Assembly: GCF_044324875.1 (NCBI RefSeq)
Contig: NZ_CP172185.1
Length of the DNA stretch: 64,000 bases
Source: Escherichia coli
GTDB lineage: Bacteria > Pseudomonadota > Gammaproteobacteria > Enterobacterales > Enterobacteriaceae
Strand: one strand, 5' to 3'
Shown: piece after piece, positions 41,584 through 64,000 of the stretch
Position numbering within the stretch: the stretch's first letter is position 1
How the letters are laid out: the number at the start of each line of letters is the position of its first letter
Notes under the pieces: model-generated
Seen by the model: the letters and a program-made list of their open reading frames with translations, nothing else
Database searches by the model: none
What the model was told of the DNA's origin: nothing
Position numbers and translations under genes: made by a program

Positions 41584-44500
41584 ATGGCAGATAATCCAAA
41601 CCTTTCATCGCCCCTGCCGGACGTGTTTTCACCGGCAACCCGCGACTGGTTTCTTCGCGCCTTTAAACAGCCGACCGCTGTCCAGTCGCAAACCTGGCAT
41701 GTGGCGGCGCGAGGCGAACATGCGCTGGTGATTGCACCGACTGGCTCCGGGAAAACGCTGGCAGCATTTCTCTACGCCCTCGATCAGCTCTTCCGCGAAG
41801 GCGGCGAAGATACCCGCGAGGCGCATAAACGTAAAACCTCACGCATCCTCTATATTTCACCGATCAAAGCTCTGGGCACCGACGTTCAGCGCAACTTGCA
41901 GATCCCGTTACAGGGTATTGCCGATGAACGGCGGCGGCGCGGCGAAACGGAAGTCAATCTTCGCGTGGGGATCCGTACTGGCGATACGCCTGCACAGGAA
42001 CGCAGCAAACTCACCCGTAATCCGCCGGATATTCTGATCACCACACCCGAATCACTCTATCTGATGCTGACCTCCCGCGCGCGCGAAACGCTACGCGGCG
42101 TCGAAACGGTAATTATTGATGAAGTCCACGCGGTAGCGGGCAGTAAACGTGGTGCGCATCTGGCGTTAAGTCTGGAGCGGCTCGATGCGCTGCTCCACAC
42201 CTCAGCACAGCGAATTGGCCTTTCTGCCACTGTACGCTCAGCCAGCGATGTTGCAGCATTTCTTGGTGGCGATCGCCCGGTTACGGTAGTAAACCCGCCC
42301 GCAATGCGCCATCCGCAGATACGGATTGTCGTACCGGTCGCCAATATGGATGATGTCTCATCGGTCGCCAGCGGCACCGGCGAAGACAGCCATGCCGGCC
42401 GAGAAGGCTCCATCTGGCCATATATTGAAACGGGTATCCTTGATGAAGTTTTGCGCCATCGCTCGACCATTGTCTTTACTAATTCACGCGGGCTGGCGGA
42501 AAAACTGACGGCACGATTGAATGAACTTTACGCCGCACGCTTACAGCGTTCCCCGTCTATCGCCGTTGATGCGGTCCATTTCGAGTCGACCTCCGGCGCA
42601 ACCTCTAACCGTGTACAAAATAGCGACATTTTTATTGCCCGCTCACACCACGGCTCCGTCTCTAAAGAACAACGAGCAATCACCGAACAGGCGCTGAAAT
42701 CGGGTGAATTACGCTGCGTGGTCGCAACCTCCAGTCTCGAACTGGGGATTGATATGGGCGCGGTGGATCTGGTGATTCAGGTGGCAACGCCGCTTTCTGT
42801 TGCCAGTGGGTTACAACGCATTGGACGTGCCGGACACCAGGTAGGTGGTATCTCCAAAGGGCTTTTTTTCCCCCGAACCAGGCGTGACTTAGTCGATTCC
42901 GCAGTCATTGTAGAGTGTATGTTCGCAGGCAGGCTGGAAAACCTGACACCGCCGCATAATCCACTCGACGTCCTTGCGCAGCAAACCGTTGCCGCCGCGG
43001 CGATGGATGCATTACAGGTAGACGAATGGTAATCCCGCGTACGCCGTGCCGCACCGTGGAAAGATCTGCCAAGACGTGTTTTTGACGCCACGCTGGATAT
43101 GCTTTCCGGGCGCTATCCCTCTGGCGATTTTTCTGCTTTTCGCCCCAAACTGGTCTGGAACCGGGAGACCGGGATATTGACCGCCCGACCTGGCGCTCAA
43201 TTGTTGGCGGTTACCAGCGGCGGCACCATTCCGGATCGTGGCATGTATAGCGTGTTATTACCCGAAGGTGAAGAACAGGCCGGTTCGCGGCGGGTGGGTG
43301 AACTGGATGAGGAGATGGTATATGAGTCGCGGGTGAACGACATTATCACTCTCGGCGCTACCTCATGGCGGATCCAGCAAATCACCCGCGATCAGGTGAT
43401 TGTGACTCCTGCTCCAGGTCGTTCTGCCCGCCTTCCCTTCTGGCGTGGTGAAGGTAACGGACGTCCGGCAGAATTAGGCGAGATGATCGGCGATTTTCTC
43501 CATTTACTGGCGGATGGCGCGTTCTTTTCCGGGACTATTCCCCCGTGGTTGGCAGAAGAAAATACGATCGCCAATATTCAGGGGTTGATTGACGAGCAGC
43601 GCAACGCGACGGGCATCGTTCCAGGTAGTCGTCATCTGGTCCTCGAACGGTGCCGTGATGAAATTGGTGACTGGCGTATTATTTTGCACTCTCCCTATGG
43701 AAGACGGGTGCATGAACCCTGGGCGCTGGCGATTGCCGGGCGAATACATGCACTATGGGGCGCTGACGCGTCTGTGGTTGCCAGTGATGACGGCATTGTT
43801 GCGCGCATTCCTGACACCGATGGTAAATTGCCTGATGCCGCGATTTTTTTGTTTGAACCAGAAAAGTTGCTGCAAATTGTCCGCGAGGCGGTAGGCAGCT
43901 CGGCACTTTTCGCCGCCCGTTTTCGCGAATGCTCCGCGCGGGCATTATTAATGCCGGGCCGCACGCCGGGCCATCGCACCCCGCTCTGGCAACAACGGCT
44001 GCGCGCCAGTCAGTTGCTGGAAATCGCTCAGGGATATCCGGATTTTCCGGTCATTCTCGAAACACTACGCGAATGTCTGCAAGATGTTTATGATCTTCCC
44101 GCGCTGGAACGTTTGATGCGTCGCCTGAACGGTGGCGAAATTCAAATATCCGATGTAACGACCACTACGCCTTCGCCTTTCGCCGCCAGTTTATTGTTCG
44201 GCTATGTCGCGGAATTTATGTACCAGAGCGACGCCCCGCTGGCAGAGCGCCGGGCATCCGTACTGTCGCTGGACAGCGAGTTACTGCGCAATCTACTCGG
44301 ACAGGTCGATCCGGGGGAATTACTCGACCCGCAGGTCATTCGCCAGGTGGAAGAAGAGTTGCAACGACTGGCTCCTGGCAGAAGAGCGAAAGGTGAAGAA
44401 GGATTGTTCGACCTGCTGCGCGAACTGGGGCCAATGACCGTTGAAGACCTGGCGCAACGACATACAGGCAGCAGTGAAGAGATTGCGTCGTATCTGGAAA

Positions 44501-45297
44501 ATCTTCTTGCAGTAAAACGAATCTTCCCGACCATGATTAGCGGGCAGGAGCGTCTTGCCTGTATGGATGATGCCGCCAGGCTGCGCGATGCTCTCGGCGT
44601 ACGACTACCAGAGTCACTGCCAGAGATTTATTTGCACCGAGTCAGTTACCCGCTTCGCGACCTCTTTCTGCGCTATCTCCGGGCTCATGCTCTGGTCACG
44701 TCTGAACAACTGGCTCATGAGTTTAGTCTCGGTACTGCCATTGTCGAAGAGCAACTTCAGCAACTGCGCGAACAGGGGCTGGTGATGAATCTGCAACAAG
44801 ACATCTGGGTGAGCGATGAAGTATTTCGTCGTCTGCGTTTGCGCTCGCTGCAAGCCGCCAGAGAAGCGACACGTCCCGTTGCGGCCACGACCTATGCGCG
44901 ATTGCTGCTGGAACGTCAGGGCGTATTACCCGCCACCGATGGTAGCCCGGCACTCTTTGCCTCAACATCGCCAGGCGTTTATGAGGGCGTGGATGGCGTG
45001 ATGCGGGTGATCGAACAGCTTGCTGGCGTTGGTTTACCCGCCTCACTCTGGGAAAGCCAGATCCTGCCTGCCCGCGTACGCGACTATTCGCCAGAAATGC
45101 TCGATGAATTACTGGCAACCGGTGCGGTTATCTGGTCGGGGCAAAAAAAGCTGGGTGAAGATGACGGTCTGGTGGCACTGCATCTACAGGAATATGCCGC
45201 AGAATCGTTCACTCCCGCCGAAGCAGATCAGGCGAATCGTTCGGCGCTGCAGCAAGCGATAATCGCTGTTCTGGCTGACGGAGGTGATCAGACATGA
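41584..45297 (+). pseudogene. lhr: ATP-dependent helicase Lhr, inactivated by an in-frame TAA at 43030-43032 and a 3' truncation at the prophage junction
   Basis: ORFs 41584..43032 and 43099..45297 are in the same frame and separated only by TAA; helicase motifs GSGKT and DEVH lie in the first part. The combined length is about 1237 codons against about 1538 expected. Confidence 0.8.
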
Positions 45298-57107: not shown

Positions 57108-57656
57108 TTACGTGTTTAATGAACGTAAGTGAGGTTTATCCGCTGTCTGCATAATCCCGATAGCCAGTGCGAGGGGAAGCAATTCCGGGGAAACTCTTTC
57201 AAACAGCGATTCCCATTCTCCTCTCGCCATCACTCTGTCCAGCCCGCCCTCCAGCTGCATTTCAGCAATCTTCCTGATTTCCCGGAACAACGCCGCTTTG
57301 ATCTCTTCATGCTCAGCTTTATTTTCCGGTGTCAGAATGTATTCGTCGAAGAACCGGGGAGGCTGGTTAACGGGGGGCATGTTCACCGGGATGTGTTCCT
57401 GTATCCCGTACTCCGGGGCTGAAAAACATTTTGTTGTCTGACCGGTGAGTTTGCGTAACACCTTCATGAGTTGCTCCTGAAGCAGCTCATTCGTCCGACA
57501 GATACGCTCGTCGTCCACAACTGCGGCATCGACAATGACGCTTTTTCCAAATTCCTTTTTCACCATCTCTTTTATACGCGTCAGAACGTAACTTTTACCG
57601 CTGCCTACAGGCCCGGACACTCTGACGGTGATGGTCGGCTTCGGTGTGACTGTCAT
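57108..57656 (-). CDS. P-loop NTPase-like protein of unknown function (182 aa)
   Basis: Start at internal ATG with SD AAGGAGA 7 bp upstream; Walker A GPVGSGKS at residues 14-21; divergent from the lysis cassette. Confidence 0.6.
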   Translation of the reverse strand: MTVTPKPTITVRVSGPVGSGKSYVLTRIKEMVKKEFGKSVIVDAAVVDDERICRTNELLQEQLMKVLRKLTGQTTKCFSAPEYGIQEHIPVNMPPVNQPPRFFDEYILTPENKAEHEEIKAALFREIRKIAEMQLEGGLDRVMARGEWESLFERVSPELLPLALAIGIMQTADKPHLRSLNT

Positions 57657-57787
57657 TCTGTATCTCCTTTGTGAGTGATCCAGCGTGTATTCTGCATACC
57701 CCGAACACGCCTCTCTCTTAACGCGCTTTAAAATCCTCCGCGCCACGCTTTTGCCATGCTGTCTCCACACAACAAGGAGACATTTTC

Positions 57788-58138
57788 ATGAAACCATTCA
57801 CTTCCCTTATCGTTGACGTACAAAAAACCCGCCTGCGTGGATGGCTTGTTGCGGCCGTGCTGCTGCTCCTCATCATCGCGCTGGTCTCACCCCAGCAGTT
57901 GCCGGTGGTGGTGTACAAGCTCTCTCTCATCTCCCTCGCCGCCGTGCTCGGCTACTGGCTGGACCGCTCACTCTTCCCGAAGGCCCGTCCGGGGCAGTAC
58001 CTGAAGCATGACGAGCGCCTCATGGCTGAGGGGCGCTGGCCCGTACAGACCGGCCTTCACCTGGTGTTTTCTGCTGCGTTAATCCGCCGTGCACTGATTG
58101 TTGCAGCTGTCTGTCTGGCTGTTGCGATGGGGCTTTAA
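57788..58138 (+). CDS. Putative holin (membrane protein, first late/lysis gene)
   Basis: 116 aa with 2-3 hydrophobic helices; AAGGAGA SD; immediately precedes the endolysin. Confidence 0.55.
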   Translation: MKPFTSLIVDVQKTRLRGWLVAAVLLLLIIALVSPQQLPVVVYKLSLISLAAVLGYWLDRSLFPKARPGQYLKHDERLMAEGRWPVQTGLHLVFSAALIRRALIVAAVCLAVAMGL

Positions 58139-58140
58139 TC

Positions 58141-58875
58141 ATGAACTGGCCACAGAGCACCTGGATTGTATGCATGTCCCTGAAACTGGCTTTCGAAGCC
58201 TTTCTGGTCTTCATCAGAACCGAACGCCTGTCAGTCCGTGTCGGGACCTTTCTGGTTCATATGGCATGGGTATTCTTTGTCGCAATGTTGCTCTGGTGTG
58301 GCGGCTTCTTCAGTCAGGCCCGCGCAGCGCAGCCTCCGCAGGCTGCGCTGCAGTATCGCGATGATGTGATCCGTAATGCCCGGCTTGAATGGGGGCTGTC
58401 TGCGCCGGTGGCCGATTTCGCCGCGCAACTGCATCAGGAAAGCGGCTGGCGGACTGATGCGGTCTCGCCGGTGGGCGCTCAGGGGCTGGCGCAGTTTATG
58501 CCCGCCACCGCTGACTGGATAAGCCAGTTGATGCCGGCGTTGAGCAGTCGTGAGCCGTTTAATCCGGCATGGGCCATCCGGGCGCTGGTCAGCTATGACC
58601 GCTGGCTGTGGCAGCGCATCAGCGCCGCCAGTGACTGCGAGCGTATGGCCATGACACTGTCGGGCTATAACGGTGGTCTGGGTTGGGTACAACGGGACAG
58701 GCGGCTCGCATCACAGAAAGGTCTGGACAGCACCCGCTGGTTCGGACATGTCGCCACGGTGAATGCCGGACGCAATGCTGCCAGCTGGCGGGAGAACCGC
58801 CATTATCCGCAGCGCATCCTGCACGAACTGGCCCCCCGTTATCTGACATGGGGGGGCGGCAGCTGTGTGGACTAA
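58141..58875 (+). CDS. Endolysin, lytic transglycosylase (SLT domain), possibly signal-anchored
   Basis: QLHQESGWRTDAVSPVGAQGLAQFMP matches the SLT catalytic E-S...GLxQ motif; hydrophobic N-terminal segment. Start codon uncertain. Confidence 0.75.
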   Translation: MNWPQSTWIVCMSLKLAFEAFLVFIRTERLSVRVGTFLVHMAWVFFVAMLLWCGGFFSQARAAQPPQAALQYRDDVIRNARLEWGLSAPVADFAAQLHQESGWRTDAVSPVGAQGLAQFMPATADWISQLMPALSSREPFNPAWAIRALVSYDRWLWQRISAASDCERMAMTLSGYNGGLGWVQRDRRLASQKGLDSTRWFGHVATVNAGRNAASWRENRHYPQRILHELAPRYLTWGGGSCVD

Positions 58876-59167
58876 CCTGCTAAAAAATCTGCCGTGGCGC
58901 AGTCTGCTGCTGGCAGTGCTCATAAATGCTTTTCTGATTGGACTTTATTACCTGGGCTACAAAAGTGCAAAATGGCATCTGAATCGATCGCAGTTTGGCA
59001 TTCGAATCGATCATGATTTGGCATCCATCTCCGATCACAGTTTGGCATCACAATCGATCACGATTTGGCATGCTTCCGATCATTGATTGGCATCCTGCCA
59101 GTCACTCCGGGAATTAACTCTTTTCACCACAGTCTCCATTGCCGTGTTTAAACCAGTGGAGACGTCA

Positions 59168-60733
59168 ATGTCCAGAAAGAGAAAATCCAGGAGCACTATG
59201 GAAACCTGTTTTAAGATCCTTCAGCTCAAGTTCGACAAGAAGCTGACTAACCGTTGTATCGGACTGACGTTACACATCAGCGCCTCAACCGTTTTTGAGG
59301 TTCTTGCCCGCTTCAAAGCCTCTTCTCTGTCATGGCCATTACCTGCTGATATATCCCATGACACGCTGGAGAAACTCATTTTTCCGCCCAAAGACACCTT
59401 TGCATCAGAGCTTGTAATGCCTGACATGTTGTACTTCGATACGGAAATGAGAAAACCAGGTGTGACGCGGCAACTGTTGTGGATGGAATACAAGGCACAG
59501 GCGGGTAACAAAGCGATGGGATACTCGCACTTCTGCCGTTGCTACCGGGAGTGGAAAAAAACGCGACGTCTCTCCATGCGCCAGGAGCATCGTGCCGGCG
59601 AAAAGCTTTTTATCGACTTCTGTGGTCCTACGGTTCCTGTTATTAATCCGGACACCGGTGAGATACGCCGCGTGGCAATCTTCGTGGCCGTAATGGGGGC
59701 GTCCAACTATACCTACGTTGAAGCGTGCGAAGGTCAGGACATGATGTCATGGTTAAATGCCCACAGCCGTTGCCTGACCTTCCTGGGCGGCGTACCGAAG
59801 CTGCTCATCCCCGATAACCTCAGAAGCGCAGTGAAAAAGGCCGATCGATATGAGCCTGTCATCAACGACAGTTATCAGGCACTGGCTGAGCACTATGGCA
59901 CGGTTATCATCCCGGCCCGACCACGCAAACCTAAAGATAAACCAAAAGCAGAAAACGGCGTCCTCATCGTTGAACGATGGCTTCTTGCCCGCATCCGTAA
60001 TGAAACCTTCCACACGCTCAGGGCGCTGAATGCGCGCCTTAGGGAGTTACTGACAGACATGAATAACCGGCCAATGAAGGGGTACGGCAATCAAACCCGT
60101 GCAGAACGCTTCCGCATACTGGATGCGCCAGCACTCTCTCCGCTGCCTCTGGCACCTTATGAATACACGGAATACAAAGCTGTGAAGGTTGGCCCTGACT
60201 ACCACGTTGAATATGCCCGTCACTGGTACTCCGTTCCACACGAACTGGTCGGTCAGCGTCTGTCACTGAAGGCGGGGCAGTCGGTGGTACAGCTCTGGCA
60301 CAAGGGGCAGTGTGTGGCGCAACATCCGCGCAGCACACATGAATATAAACACACAACCAATCCGCTTCACATGCCAGAGCGCCACCGGCAGCACGGGACA
60401 TGGACACCGGAACGCCTGATCGAGCAGGGAAAACGTACGGGCCCGTCCACAGGCCGGGTGGTTGAATCCATGCTGAAGGCAAAACCCCATCCGGAACTGG
60501 CTTATCGTGCAGTTCTGGGGCTGCTGGCACTTCAGAAAAAATACGGCCCGGAACGGCTGGAAAAGGCCTGTTACGTTGCCCTGCACTATAACGCCCCTGA
60601 CAGACGCTTTATCGACAATCTGCTGCGTCACCATCGGGAGAACCTGGAGCTTCCATTATCCCGCCAGGGCGAACAACATCCGGCATATGCTTCAGAGCAT
60701 GAAAACCTGCGTGGTCCGGGCTACTACCACTGA
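59168..60733 (+). CDS. istA: IS21-family transposase IstA
   Basis: N-terminal HTH, DDE core; alternative start at 59198 (METCF...) has an AGGAG SD. Confidence 0.8.
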   Translation: MSRKRKSRSTMETCFKILQLKFDKKLTNRCIGLTLHISASTVFEVLARFKASSLSWPLPADISHDTLEKLIFPPKDTFASELVMPDMLYFDTEMRKPGVTRQLLWMEYKAQAGNKAMGYSHFCRCYREWKKTRRLSMRQEHRAGEKLFIDFCGPTVPVINPDTGEIRRVAIFVAVMGASNYTYVEACEGQDMMSWLNAHSRCLTFLGGVPKLLIPDNLRSAVKKADRYEPVINDSYQALAEHYGTVIIPARPRKPKDKPKAENGVLIVERWLLARIRNETFHTLRALNARLRELLTDMNNRPMKGYGNQTRAERFRILDAPALSPLPLAPYEYTEYKAVKVGPDYHVEYARHWYSVPHELVGQRLSLKAGQSVVQLWHKGQCVAQHPRSTHEYKHTTNPLHMPERHRQHGTWTPERLIEQGKRTGPSTGRVVESMLKAKPHPELAYRAVLGLLALQKKYGPERLEKACYVALHYNAPDRRFIDNLLRHHRENLELPLSRQGEQHPAYASEHENLRGPGYYH

Positions 60734-60749
60734 CAGAAGGAACAACAGT

Positions 60750-61505
60750 ATGAGTGATAACCTGTTAAACAAACTGACCCAACTGAAACTCCCGGCGATG
60801 GCCGGGAGCCTGATACGGCAGCGGGAAACGCCTCAGACCTACGACGAACTGTCGTTCGAGGAAAGGCTGACGCTGCTGGTTGATGACGAGCTTCTGAGCA
60901 GGGAAAACAGCCGTGTGGCACGGTTGAGAAAAAATGCCGGCCTGAAATACCAGGCAACACCGGAAGGGCTGCGCTATCCGGCCTCAAGAGGTCTGCGGGC
61001 TGAACAGATGAGAGAACTGCTGAACGGCCACTACATAACCCACAGGAAAAACCTGCTGATAACCGGTCCGACAGGATGTGGCAAGAGCTGGATAGCCAAT
61101 GCGCTGGGCGAACAGGCATGTCGACAGAAACACAGCGTCCGGTACTGTAGAACCGGGCGATTACTGGAACAACTGGCTCAGGGACGTGTTGATGGCAGCT
61201 GGCTGAAATATCTGAAACAGTTGCAAAAAATACAGGTTCTAATCCTGGACGATCTGGGGCTGGAACAGTTAAGTAACGCCCAGTGTAATGACCTTCTGGA
61301 GCTCATAGAGGATCGTTACGGACAAAGCAGCACGATAGTGGTAAGCCAGTTCCCGGTAGATAAATGGCATGGTCTGATGGAGAACCCAACAACAGCAGAT
61401 GCCATCCTGGACAGACTGGTACATAACTCACACCGAGTGGTCCTTCAGGGAGAGTCACTGAGGAAAAATCCCCCGGTAGTGGAAAGCAGCGAAAAAACGC
61501 GTTAA
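60750..61505 (+). CDS. istB: IS21-family helper ATPase IstB
   Basis: 251 aa; Walker A GPTGCGKS and Walker B LILDDLG; start at internal ATG (MSDNLLNKLTQLKLPAMAGS). Confidence 0.85.
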   Translation: MSDNLLNKLTQLKLPAMAGSLIRQRETPQTYDELSFEERLTLLVDDELLSRENSRVARLRKNAGLKYQATPEGLRYPASRGLRAEQMRELLNGHYITHRKNLLITGPTGCGKSWIANALGEQACRQKHSVRYCRTGRLLEQLAQGRVDGSWLKYLKQLQKIQVLILDDLGLEQLSNAQCNDLLELIEDRYGQSSTIVVSQFPVDKWHGLMENPTTADAILDRLVHNSHRVVLQGESLRKNPPVVESSEKTR

Positions 61506-61856
61506 AAAGCGGTAGAAAAAGTTAAGTTCCCGGTTGATCGAATGGATGCGAATCGCTGATCGGACTTCGATGCCAATCCGTGATCGAATAGAGCGGAATA
61601 CGCAAAAGCGGGCATGAAAACGCCACGCGCGACGGCGATAAGGCGATCAGTGAGTTGCAGTCAGCATTCGACACATACAAAACGGAGCAGGCAATGCTTG
61701 AGAACGCTGCATTGCGAGCATGGGCAAAACGGTATCAGGAGCAGGTGGCCGCTGGGCAGCAGGCTGAGGCCGGTTATCTTGAGCAGATTGCTCAACTGGA
61801 GAGTCAGAACAAACAACTACAGGGGCAAATTAACGATGTCACACAGCGCTGGATTG

Positions 61857-62123
61857 ATGAAAAAGGTAAGAGCCATCCCATTGAGTGCGTGTTTACTCGC
61901 GGTTTCGTGCGCCAGTACAACGCCGCACTCGGGTATGACAACGCATCCGTCGACACCGGTCATTCAGACTCAGTTGCCGCCACTGGCACCCGCTCTGGCA
62001 CAGCGACCGGGCAACCTGAAACCACTGACACCCGGTTACGCGATTCGGGTGTCTCCCAGCGTGACGTTCTCGCCAACATCATCGACAACGCAGGACAATG
62101 TCGTCGCTGGCGGAACCAGATAA
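61857..62123 (+). CDS. Rz1-like o-spanin lipoprotein, embedded in the +1 frame of Rz
   Basis: MKKVRAIPLSACLLAVSCASTTP (lipobox AVSC) followed by a proline-rich tail; lies entirely within the Rz C-terminal fragment. Confidence 0.65.
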   Translation: MKKVRAIPLSACLLAVSCASTTPHSGMTTHPSTPVIQTQLPPLAPALAQRPGNLKPLTPGYAIRVSPSVTFSPTSSTTQDNVVAGGTR

Positions 62124-62157
62124 ACGCGTTGCTGGATGAACGGGAAGGATTACAGAA

Positions 62158-62484
62158 ATGACACTGCAGGTTGAATTCTGGACGGTGGTGGGCTTTCTCA
62201 TCACCTTCATGAGCTTTGTTGGCGGTATGGCCAAATGGCTGTTCAGTAAAGCGGAGGAACGTCAGGCTGCACGTTTTGCCTCTCTTGAGCAGTCACTGCA
62301 GCAGTCCGCCTCCAGTTGGGGCGAGCTGGAAAAAGAATTGATGCGATTTAAAGCGGATTTACCGCTGAATTATGTCCGTCGCGAGGATTATATCCGTGGC
62401 CAGACAGTCATCGAGGCCAAACTGGACGCGCTTTACAACAAACTGGAAGTGGTACAGCAGTACCGCAATACCGGAGGTCAATAA
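62158..62484 (+). CDS. Hypothetical phage membrane protein
   Basis: 108 aa, N-terminal TM helix; start overlaps Rz stop. Confidence 0.5.
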   Translation: MTLQVEFWTVVGFLITFMSFVGGMAKWLFSKAEERQAARFASLEQSLQQSASSWGELEKELMRFKADLPLNYVRREDYIRGQTVIEAKLDALYNKLEVVQQYRNTGGQ

Positions 62485-62795
62485 TGGTCGATATTACCCG
62501 GGTACGCCGTGAATCCCTGCGCTGGAGTCTGCTGGTTGCCCTTAACAAAACCCGCCCTTACACCGCCAGCGAGACGCTGCTGCTGGAAGTGTCCCGCGCC
62601 ATCTACCCGGACACCACGCAACTGGAACTGCGCCGTGAGCTTGATTACCTGGCAGATCGCAAAATGGTGGAACTGGAGAGGAGACCGTCCGGTGACTGGT
62701 TTGCCGATCTGAGTCGCCTTGGTGTGGATATTGTGGAATACACCGTGGAATGCGGCCCCGGTATTGCCCGCCCGGAAAAATACTGGAGTGAGTGA
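62484..62795 (+). CDS. Hypothetical phage protein
   Basis: 103-aa ORF translationally coupled to its neighbours. Confidence 0.5.
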   Translation: MVDITRVRRESLRWSLLVALNKTRPYTASETLLLEVSRAIYPDTTQLELRRELDYLADRKMVELERRPSGDWFADLSRLGVDIVEYTVECGPGIARPEKYWSE

Positions 62796-63340
62796 TTATG
62801 GGACGTCGCAGCAGCATTGATTCTCTGCCGAAGGAGGTCCGTCGCTGGCTTGAGCGGGCACTGACGGAGAATAATTTCACCGGCTATGCAGAGCTTGAAA
62901 GTCTGTTGAAGGAAAAGGGGTACAGCATCACCCGCTCTTCCCTGCAGCGGTTTGGCTACAAAATGGAGCAGCAACTGGCCCGTGTGCGGGCGGCAACCGA
63001 GGCAGCGCGTCTGCTTGCCCGGGAGGCCGGAGACGATCCTGATGACCGTTCAGCCGGACTGATAACCCTCGTCCAGACCGAAATGACGGATATCCTGATG
63101 CGCCTGCAGGAGTCGCGGGAAAACGACGATCCCTTCGCCCGGGCAAAACTGCTGGCAACGGCTTCAAAAAATATCGCCACACTGACCCGCGCCTCGGTCA
63201 ACCTCAAGCGCTATCAGGCAGAAGTCAGAGAGAGGGTTGAACGTGCTGCCGCTGCCGCCGAGAAAATTGCCCGTAAGGGCGGGCTCTCTGCGGAAGCCGT
63301 ACAGGCACTGCGCCGGGAAATTCTGGGGGTGGCGTCATGA
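62792..63340 (+). CDS. Mu gp27-like protein (putative small terminase subunit)
   Basis: 182 aa; MGRRSSIDSLPKEVRRWLERAL... resembles Mu gp27; directly precedes the large terminase. Confidence 0.7.
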   Translation: MIMGRRSSIDSLPKEVRRWLERALTENNFTGYAELESLLKEKGYSITRSSLQRFGYKMEQQLARVRAATEAARLLAREAGDDPDDRSAGLITLVQTEMTDILMRLQESRENDDPFARAKLLATASKNIATLTRASVNLKRYQAEVRERVERAAAAAEKIARKGGLSAEAVQALRREILGVAS

Positions 63341-64000
63341 CGGAGCTGCCGCCGCACATTCCTGACACCGCGAGTTATGAGACACCGCCGGTTCTGTTGC
63401 CTTACCAGCAGCGCTGGGTGGCAGATACCTCTCCGCTTAAGGTGATGGAAAAGAGCCGTCGTACCGGTATTACATGGGCTGAGGCATCCGATAACGTACT
63501 GACCGCAGCCTCTTCTGCGCCTGCAGGCGGGATGAATGTGTATTACATCGCCTATAACCAGGATATGACCGTCGAATACATTCAGGCGTGTGCGATGTGG
63601 GCGCGGGCATTCAACTATGCGGCCAGTGAAATTGAAGAAGGATTCTGGGAGGAGGACGACGACGATAAACACATCAGGACTTACACCATCAAATTTCCTG
63701 ACTCCGGCTTTCGCATTGTCGCGCTCTCCAGCCGCCCGTCTAACCTGCGTGGCCGTCAGGGTATTATTGTTATCGACGAAGCGGCGTTCCATGAGCAACT
63801 GGACGAACTGCTGAAAGCGGCGCTGGCGATGCTTATCTGGGGGGGCAAGGTACGCGTTATCTCCACCCATGACGGTGACGACAATCCATTCAGTACGCTT
63901 ATCGGAGATATCCGTGCCGGACGTCAGGGAGGCAGCGTACATCGCATCACTTTCCGGGAAGCCGTATCTGAGGGGCTGTTCCAGCGCGTTTGTCTGCGCA
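63337..64000 (+). CDS. Terminase large subunit (5' portion; continues past window end)
   Basis: N-terminus with LPYQQRW motif and ATPase-like region; open to the window end. Confidence 0.8.
   Translation, partial: MTELPPHIPDTASYETPPVLLPYQQRWVADTSPLKVMEKSRRTGITWAEASDNVLTAASSAPAGGMNVYYIAYNQDMTVEYIQACAMWARAFNYAASEIEEGFWEEDDDDKHIRTYTIKFPDSGFRIVALSSRPSNLRGRQGIIVIDEAAFHEQLDELLKAALAMLIWGGKVRVISTHDGDDNPFSTLIGDIRAGRQGGSVHRITFREAVSEGLFQRVCLR

Follow-up and report, generated by a model that had tools for sequence, protein, structure and literature searches.

An active insertion sequence (IS) of the IS21 family has very probably transposed into codon 34 of the i-spanin gene of a Bcepmuvirus-like prophage and duplicated the target AAAG, which would leave the prophage with a lysis defect. 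The prophage is a transposable (Mu-like) element located within lhr on the E. coli chromosome. Its left end, beginning TGATCAG, lies at position 45285 of the window, i.e. the whole 64-kb stretch of DNA that was analysed, and its right end lies beyond the window. An identical prophage in strain PK8275, annotated with genes for Mor, Gam, an ExeA-type ATPase and a DDE transposase, occupies another host gene. Among named phages, PhiKM is the closest, and it has been assigned to Bcepmuvirus. The insertion amounts to an ordinary gene knockout, and the 2.6-kb IS is a common, already catalogued jumping gene.

The lysis cassette starts with a holin gene (57788..58138, + strand; phrog_1528, E = 1.2e-50), named 'putative holin' by RefSeq in identical prophages. 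It is followed by the gene of an SLT lytic transglycosylase endolysin (58141..58875, + strand; phrog_669 endolysin, E = 4.9e-67; RefSeq name 'transglycosylase SLT domain-containing protein') and then directly by the i-spanin gene, which is present in two fragments. The 5' fragment (58865..58965, + strand) has a GTG start, the same as in the intact 654-nt CDS in RefSeq, and comprises codons 1–33 plus 2 nt, encoding the N-terminal transmembrane segment. The 3' fragment (61609..62161, + strand) runs from the third base of codon 34 to the stop codon and encodes the whole periplasmic domain, without a start codon and without a membrane anchor. Tightly packed late genes follow (62158..63340, + strand), assigned with PHROG to phrog_462, phrog_436 and the terminase small subunit (DUF3486). 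In uninterrupted prophages, the next genes encode the terminase large subunit and a DUF935 protein.

The initial annotation had proposed that excision of the IS and one repeat copy would rejoin the reading frame. Joining 58865–58965 to 61609–62161 indeed gave a 654-nt open frame for a protein of 217 aa, reading ...LGYKSGHENATRDGDKAISELQSAF... across the insertion point. The two fragments can be aligned to one contiguous homologue, as the restored protein aligned unbroken across the insertion point with relatives of 90% and 36% identity. It matched PHROG 1403 'Rz-like spanin' from end to end (E = 1.9e-89; residues 1–217 of 217, profile positions 1–212 of 212) and, more weakly, four other Rz-like PHROGs; the RefSeq homologue WP_011410681.1 is named 'lysis system spanin subunit'. 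Searches of Pfam and NCBIfam with the restored protein gave no match, and the Pfam Rz family PF03245 was likewise not matched. Since Pfam and NCBIfam are silent, the assignment as a spanin is based on the PHROG name, the position of the gene and its architecture, and 'Rz' is used here as a functional label only, because PF03245 was not matched. Of the earlier identification of the gene as Rz, the spanin function was thus retained on the basis of PHROG and architecture, while support from Pfam was absent.

The predicted architecture would be compatible with an inner-membrane spanin. The best 19-residue Kyte–Doolittle window (mean 2.03) marked an N-terminal hydrophobic segment at approximately residues 13–31, and two cysteines (127 and 198) are located in the predicted periplasmic domain. 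An AlphaFold model of low confidence (mean pLDDT 57) contained a helix at residues 11–119, a linker and a second helix at residues 184–215. The Rz1-type o-spanin ORF (61857..62123, + strand; 88 aa) was found intact in the +1 frame within the i-spanin gene, downstream of the insertion as initially described, and was identical to that of an uninterrupted prophage. It encodes a signal peptide (MKKVRAIPLSACLLAVS) followed by a predicted lipid-modified cysteine (Cys18), and 11 of the 70 residues after Cys18 are prolines. Five relatives have retained this ORF together with its start and lipobox, and a similar lipoprotein ORF, likewise in the +1 frame, was present in a Pseudomonas phage with a 36% identical i-spanin. 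No match to the o-spanin ORF was obtained in PHROG or NCBIfam. The ORF occupies 0.54–0.94 of the i-spanin length (L), close to the usual range of embedded spanins, which mostly start at 0.4–0.5 L and end at 0.9–1 L (PMC6139136). Such a +1-frame ORF for a lipoprotein is a hallmark of spanins with two components (PMC6139136). The PHROG match, the position after the holin and endolysin genes, the unbroken alignments and the RefSeq name of the homologue support the reading that the IS interrupts a putative i-spanin gene of the prophage, in which an o-spanin ORF is embedded.

The inserted DNA (58966..61604, + strand) is a complete member of the IS21 family, 2639 bp long with the termini TGC...GCA, annotated as 'ISSso4 family' by PGAP and oriented in the same direction as the phage late genes. 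Two consecutive genes are encoded, with 16 nt between the istA stop and the istB start. The istA gene (59198..60733, + strand) encodes the IS21-family DDE transposase, with 511 aa according to the RefSeq copies and a possible alternative upstream ATG at 59169, and istB (60750..61505, + strand) encodes the IS21 helper AAA+ ATPase of 251 aa. Both products exceeded the curated NCBIfam cut-offs: IstA scored 284.7 bits with NF033546 (transpos_IS21; cut-off 160) and IstB 257.8 bits with NF038214 (IS21_help_AAA; cut-off 200). IstA additionally matched the phrog_1157 transposase (E = 1.1e-90). In identical IS copies, the two proteins are annotated as WP_045147483.1 (IstA) and WP_001282653.1 (IstB; 'ISSso4 family helper ATPase IstB' in the PGAP/RefSeq annotation). 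Full-length copies with 100% identity occurred in many unrelated chromosomal and plasmid contexts of E. coli. At least 80% of the IS was covered at one place in 225 genomes and likewise in 232 plasmid records, and up to 23 places were occupied per genome. The copies annotated as ISSso4-family members shared the sequence (100% over 2639 bp), the istA–istB pair, the TG...CA ends, multiple subterminal repeats and short target duplications with the element studied here, the insertion site being the only difference. The IS may be ISSso4 or a named isoform thereof, as judged by comparison with annotated copies.

The left IS end (58966..59094, + strand) consists of the terminal inverted repeat and five direct copies of the motif GATC-N5-TTGGCAT, presumed to be IstA binding sites. 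These five copies were exact and started at 58986, 59009, 59033, 59056 and 59078, a spacing of 22–24 nt. The right IS end (61546..61604, − strand) consists of the terminal inverted repeat and two inverted copies of the motif, one exact (61570–61585) and one with a single mismatch (61546–61561); there was no further exact match to the motif anywhere in the 64-kb window. The first 60 nt of the IS and the reverse complement of its last 60 nt aligned as an imperfect inverted repeat. The limits of the IS were set by comparison with seven further identical copies from unrelated contexts, each of which starts with TGCAAAATGGCA and finishes with GCGGAATACGCA, so that eight copies agree, including the present one. 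The reiterated IS21-type end motifs reported in the initial annotation were thereby recovered as five direct copies on the left and two inverted copies on the right. Its assignment of the element to the IS21 family is likewise upheld by the NCBIfam scores, the TG...CA ends, the subterminal repeats and target duplications of 4–7 bp.

The left junction reads ...GGCTACAAAAG/TGCAAAATGGCAT between positions 58965 and 58966, and the right junction ...GGAATACGCA/AAAGCGGGCATGAA between positions 61604 and 61605. From the junctions and the comparison of copies, the target-site duplication was identified as AAAG, with its left copy at 58962..58965 and its right copy at 61605..61608. The terminal CA belongs to the IS, because the seven other copies share the same ends, and the duplication is therefore AAAG (4 bp) and not CAAAAG; the flanking direct repeat was thus confirmed in its shorter form, whereas the longer form that had been considered includes the IS terminus. 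Target duplications of 4, 5, 6, 7, 7 and 7 bp were found in six other identical IS copies, and those reported for the IS21 family measure 4–8 bp.

Uninterrupted prophages carry the empty site GGCTACAAAAGCGGGC with only one AAAG. With the IS and one AAAG removed, 710 nt matched in a single BLAST piece with 100% identity in 11 complete E. coli genomes, which carries much more weight than a 4-bp repeat by itself (chance expectation 1 in 256). Together with the IS limits, the empty site bears out an insertion at 58966–61604. The left flank had 1 mismatch in 4157 nt to an uninterrupted prophage, and the right flank up to position 64000 of the window had 0 mismatches in 2392 nt to the uninterrupted prophage L002. 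Since the flanks match uninterrupted prophage copies and the IS matches many other copies, the insertion is, judging by sequence, a recent event. The junction between the IS and the spanin gene was absent from 5,426 complete E. coli genomes, and no record of the 73-aa fusion product described below was found among public assemblies.

Three other readings of the interruption can be weighed against these data. The possibility that the gene has long been in two parts, conserved and functional with DNA in between, was rejected, and its probability is practically nil. The initial annotation had named related prophages sharing the split Rz gene as evidence against its own interpretation; the gene was found in one piece in 574 complete E. 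coli genomes and none contained the junction. The flanks are nearly or fully identical to those of uninterrupted copies, the intervening DNA is a standard IS known from unrelated places, and nothing was found in favour of an old two-part gene. An assembly artefact, in which an IS repeat contig had been misplaced into the prophage, would be in keeping with the multicopy nature of the IS in many strains (up to the 23 places per genome given above) and with the occurrence of IS-only contigs in assemblies, such as a 2636-bp record. However, a misjoin would not yield a target duplication, whereas the present one is perfect, its 4 bp fall inside the 4–7 bp range of the other copies, and both junctions are located exactly at the IS termini; we regard an artefact as highly improbable. 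Alternatively, the product of the interrupted gene might be a different small membrane protein encoded in the lysis region, and the insertion would then leave outer-membrane disruption unaffected. The missing Pfam and NCBIfam matches and the varying RefSeq names of the intact protein (hypothetical, lipoprotein, membrane protein, MreC domain-containing) leave some room for this, and no experiments on this protein family were found. It is nevertheless very unlikely in view of the end-to-end match to PHROG 1403 and the matches to four other Rz-like PHROG families, the position as third gene after holin and endolysin, the transmembrane segment at the N-terminus with a long helix predicted after it, and the conserved +1 lipoprotein ORF, which is also present in the distant Pseudomonas relative.

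For an IS insertion into the i-spanin gene, the consequences for the protein can be read from the two fragments. The frame of the 5' fragment continues for 40 codons into the IS and ends with TGA at 59084–59086, giving a predicted product of 73 aa. The N-terminal anchor is thus cut off from the periplasmic domain and would be made as a 73-aa stub ending in IS sequence. Because the periplasmic domain has neither a start codon nor an export signal, a functional i-spanin is predicted to be impossible to make; the loss of the i-spanin claimed in the initial annotation holds at the level of the coding sequence, where anchor and periplasmic domain are separated. Rz1, although its own ORF is intact, would be useless without the i-spanin partner, and its transcription must traverse the IS. 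In lambda, Rz and Rz1 are needed for the disruption of the outer membrane, the final step of lysis, as known from the spanin-null phenotype (PMC6139136). By analogy with lambda genetics, host lysis would be impaired. In induced cells, degradation of the wall by holin and SLT endolysin would go ahead as usual, leaving the outer membrane unbreached. Cells would become fragile spheres, from which phage would be freed only by shear or at low concentrations of divalent cations.

The IS may also lower the expression of the downstream terminase and head genes in the same string of genes. Such polarity on the packaging genes, on which the initial annotation was silent, is compatible with the preferred explanation and differs from it in the dominant consequence if it, rather than the lysis defect, is the main effect, so that no particles would be formed. 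This is possible but doubtful. The IS separates the late promoter, located ahead of the holin gene, from the terminase, portal and head genes, the transcription of which might be lowered or abolished. All genes from the holin through the DUF935 protein (holin, endolysin, spanin, three small genes, terminase small and large subunits, DUF935 protein) are encoded on the same strand and either overlap or are only a few bases apart. After istB, approximately 100 nt of IS end are followed by approximately 550 nt of start-less spanin fragment, which together presumably could serve as a Rho entry region. On the other hand, the IS is co-oriented with the operon, istA and istB are translated, and internal late promoters may exist, as in Mu. 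Polarity is uncertain because terminator prediction for the + strand of the IS yielded no intrinsic terminator.

The spanin pair resembles Rz/Rz1 of lambda in its predicted type II protein of the inner membrane, the periplasmic domain of which would be long and helical and contains cysteines, in the gene of a predicted proline-rich outer-membrane lipoprotein embedded in the +1 frame, and in its place as the last of the holin–endolysin–spanin cassette (PMC6139136). In contrast to lambda, Pfam-level homology to Rz was undetected in the Pfam scan (PF03245 unmatched), the mature o-spanin has approximately 70 instead of 40 residues and no cysteine beyond the lipidated one, and the endolysin partner is an SLT transglycosylase. 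The i-spanin is also longer, with 217 aa compared to the 153 aa of lambda Rz. Bcepmuvirus-like phages and prophages, such as BcepMu and Escherichia phage PhiKM, have the same lysis cassette and gene order, and the PhiKM spanin shares approximately 90% protein identity with the restored spanin. They also have Mor, Gam, the ExeA-type ATPase and the DDE transposase in common, and the host gene varies among strains. The present copy carries the IS in its spanin gene; in the PhiKM record, as in hundreds of copies of the prophage, it is missing. Prophage genes inactivated by an IS occur in E. coli and Shigella, for example through IS629 in O157 prophages. The present case matches these in having a single IS with a target duplication and one gene knocked out in an otherwise conserved prophage, and differs only in the particular IS and gene.

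The 2639-bp insert occupied positions 58966–61604 and interrupted a prophage gene for an i-spanin, the Rz-like inner-membrane spanin. The left junction passed from GGCTACAAAAG to TGCAAAATGGCAT at 58965/58966 and the right junction from GGAATACGCA to AAAGCGGGCATGAA at 61604/61605. From its GTG start at 58865, the interrupted 5' part ran through 33 phage codons and 40 insert codons to a stop at 59084–59086, encoding a 73-aa product (the Rz stub). The insert contained two large ORFs on the + strand, istA (59198–60733) and istB (60750–61505). On its 3' side, a 168-codon open frame ended at 62161 and another ORF, in the +1 frame, at 62123. Joining 58865–58965 to 61609–62161, with the insertion sequence (IS) and one copy of AAAG removed, restored a 654-nt ORF encoding 217 aa, in agreement with the initial annotation, which had described the Rz reading frame as reconstructable.

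The 710-nt reconstructed site was 100% identical to 11 complete E. coli genomes in a single BLAST piece, and 574 genomes contained it in one place at an identity of at least 90%. The RefSeq CDS at the uninterrupted site was 654 nt long and had the identical GTG start. A query with the left junction returned no genome with a match running past 58965, and the 73-aa Rz'-IS fusion product was not on record in an exact look-up in public assemblies. Compared with the uninterrupted prophage of Ec1117, the left flank had 1 mismatch in 4157 nt and the right flank none in 2392 nt. Since the gene was contiguous in relatives, the junction was absent elsewhere and the flanks were nearly identical, these comparisons identify the insertion as real and recent and, as far as the searched collections show, private to the strain.

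Full-length copies with 100% identity to the insert were present in many E. coli chromosomes and plasmids, and the identical copies examined came largely from poultry-associated strains and their plasmids. At a coverage of at least 80%, the element was found in 225 complete genomes (up to 23 places per genome) and in 232 plasmid records, mostly of Escherichia and some of Salmonella, Shigella and Klebsiella. RefSeq labelled istA of identical copies as ‘IS21 family transposase’ and istB as ‘IS21-like element ISSso4 family helper ATPase IstB’. Both proteins passed the curated NCBIfam cut-offs (IstA: 284.7 bits, cut-off 160; IstB: 257.8 bits, cut-off 200). The left IS end carried five direct copies of the 16-mer GATC-N5-TTGGCAT and the right end two inverted copies (one exact, one with a single mismatch); no exact match was present elsewhere in the 64-kb window. 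The 60-nt termini aligned as an imperfect inverted repeat. Judged by its sequence, the insert thus has all the hallmarks that define the IS21 family, and the family assignment made initially is supported by the NCBIfam scores, the reiterated end motifs, the inverted repeat and the termini shared among copies.

Seven other identical copies, whose surroundings were unrelated and included plasmid genes and the genes for a dynamin-family protein, a phage terminase and a helicase, all started with TGCAAAATGGCA and ended with GCGGAATACGCA. These shared termini set the limits of the IS at 58966–61604 and make AAAG the duplication at the present site. The initial annotation had given AAAG, possibly CAAAAG; the 6-bp version was rejected because the IS itself ends in CA in every copy. 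Six of the seven other copies had flanking direct repeats, of 4, 5, 6, 7, 7 and 7 bp. The flanks of the copy on plasmid pD2-tet(X4) did not match (TTAAG versus ACTTT), which points to a deletion beside it or to a rearrangement that involved more than one copy. A 100% identical copy of the IS in E. coli E2 (NZ_CP104509.1) split the terminase large-subunit gene of another prophage, lambdoid in appearance, and was flanked by a 4-bp duplication (AGGA); together with the present copy, this means that the IS has struck prophage genes at least twice. A 2636-bp IS-only record from strain ESDR8 was considered as a circular intermediate and rejected as a linear leftover contig. The literature found on ISSso4 merely listed the element, and a literature search for IS-disrupted spanins yielded nothing specific. 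The insertion adds one further data point for current activity of an ISSso4-family element in E. coli.

The restored protein matched PHROG 1403 (‘Rz-like spanin’) along its full length (E = 1.9e-89) and four further Rz-like spanin PHROGs weakly. Its gene followed those of a holin (phrog_1528) and an SLT endolysin (phrog_669). A Pfam scan gave no significant hit, including to PF03245, NCBIfam gave no hit for Rz, and homology to lambda Rz was not detected in either scan. The i-spanin label therefore rests on PHROG membership and architecture, by which the interrupted gene is a spanin. Residues ~13–31 were strongly hydrophobic and two cysteines were located in the predicted periplasmic part. A low-confidence AlphaFold2 model built from an alignment of six sequences (mean pLDDT 57) contained a long helix (11–119), an unstructured linker and a C-terminal helix (184–215). 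Lambda Rz has a CC1–linker–CC2 layout (PMC6139136), which the modelled helix–linker–helix resembles, a likeness that is weak evidence at this mean pLDDT. The restored protein aligned unbroken across the insertion point to relatives of ~90% identity, among them Escherichia phage PhiKM (Bcepmuvirus) and a module from the record of Klebsiella phage KP12, as well as, at 36% identity, to the ‘Rz-like spanin’ of Pseudomonas phage Komp_PAO1_1. Both fragments thus aligned to one contiguous homologue, and a split gene was not seen in the relatives. RefSeq named one i-spanin homologue ‘lysis system spanin subunit’ and others hypothetical, lipoprotein, membrane protein or MreC domain-containing.

The +1-frame ORF at 61857–62123 encoded MKKVRAIPLSACLLAVS-C..., a lipoprotein signal with a predicted lipobox cysteine (Cys18), followed by 70 residues of which 11 were proline. 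It was identical to that of the uninterrupted prophage, so the Rz1-type o-spanin gene was intact, as had been annotated. Neither NCBIfam nor PHROGs gave a hit for Rz1, and the assignment therefore rests on the signal and lipobox features and on conservation; the start and lipobox were conserved in all five relatives examined. An ATG at 61614, well before the lipoprotein start, began a stretch of 169 open codons in the +1 frame; this long open frame (61614–62123) was also present in the uninterrupted gene and has no obvious significance. The o-spanin ORF spanned 0.54–0.94 of the i-spanin length, close to the usual range of embedded spanins (PMC6139136). Komp_PAO1_1, whose i-spanin was 36% identical from end to end, had a comparable +1 lipoprotein ORF (…LVVGC-ATTTP…, 35% identity). 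Whereas the o-spanin ORF was fully embedded here, that of Komp_PAO1_1 extended 19 nt past the i-spanin stop and was hence overlapped. Kongari et al. 2018 (PMC6139136) described no family of spanins with both embedded and overlapped architectures; the present family may be a counter-example. The embedded o-spanin gene was unannotated in all five uninterrupted related records inspected, exposing an annotation gap in which the o-spanin is missing and the i-spanin inconsistently named.

The membrane anchor (residues 1–33) and the periplasmic domain (34–217) of the i-spanin are now separated by the 2.6-kb insert. The first in-frame restarts 3' of the IS, TTG 61655 and ATG 61694, would yield cytoplasmic fragments without an export signal. 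Judged from the reading frames, a functional i-spanin cannot be made. In lambda, the last lysis step is blocked when either spanin subunit is missing, and spanin-null cells become outer-membrane-bounded spheres, which stay whole unless sheared or deprived of millimolar divalent cations (PMC6139136). By analogy with lambda genetics, the last lysis step would be blocked in induced cells of the present strain, which would end as such spheres.

The dominant effect of the IS might instead be polarity on downstream late genes. The element is codirectional with a tightly packed late-gene string whose later members include the terminase and portal genes, and the spanin fragment 3' of istB has no start codon, which could permit Rho-dependent polarity. 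However, a terminator scan predicted no intrinsic + strand terminator inside the IS, and we consider a dominant polar effect rather unlikely. An outward-reading IS promoter was unsupported, as no sigma-70-like sites were found in a promoter scan of 57600–62600. The Rz stub and istA were in the same frame with a lone TGA (59084–59086) between them, and the istA frame was open from this codon onward, beginning 111 nt before the annotated start (59198). The shared frame is probably due to chance (1 in 3). It is highly improbable, in our judgement, that the spanin knockout reflects selection rather than an accident of drift, as a ‘grounding’ of a prophage still intact and inducible in other respects, whereby the lysogen would retain prophage benefits and release would be blunted by the outer membrane continuing to enclose induced cells, or that, in a more exotic variant of this idea, TGA read-through would produce a membrane-anchored IstA fusion, tying IS expression to the phage late promoter.

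The disruption of the i-spanin gene is a correct and cleanly demonstrable finding, already known in kind. It is not novel, because the IS, the prophage type and the functional gene class are known and the mechanism, with its target duplication, is ordinary. Disruption of prophage genes by IS elements is common in both E. coli and Shigella, and the significance is slight beyond annotation of the strain. Since the insertion makes this prophage copy spanin-defective, the strain would, by the same analogy, be a poor source of free phage; the copy could serve as a natural spanin-null mutant for this i-spanin/o-spanin family. The apparently mixed architecture of the family and its deficient annotation are mildly useful by-products.

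The left end of the prophage was at 45285 (TGATCAGACATGAGATAAATG..., TGATCAG...) and lay within lhr, the host gene for an ATP-dependent helicase; the insertion of the prophage truncated this gene to a 732-codon ORF (43099–45297). The host sequence was E. coli, 99.9% identical to strain GN25, and the window ended within the prophage packaging genes. In E. coli PK8275, a 100% identical prophage resided in a different host gene (alkaline phosphatase family), which fits integration by transposition, as expected. Its genes encoded Mor, gp16, Gam, an ExeA-type ATPase and a DDE transposase. Based on this gene set and the differing host gene, the prophage is a Mu-like transposable prophage of the Bcepmuvirus type. 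A Bcepmuvirus-like lysis and packaging module, with a spanin protein ~91% identical to the one described here, was also present in Klebsiella phage KP12 clone KP12_2 (OM835952.1), a 34.9-kb ‘partial sequence’ filed under Vequintavirinae; the record appears to be a Mu-like prophage, either co-purified or induced, and not a piece of a Vequintavirinae genome.
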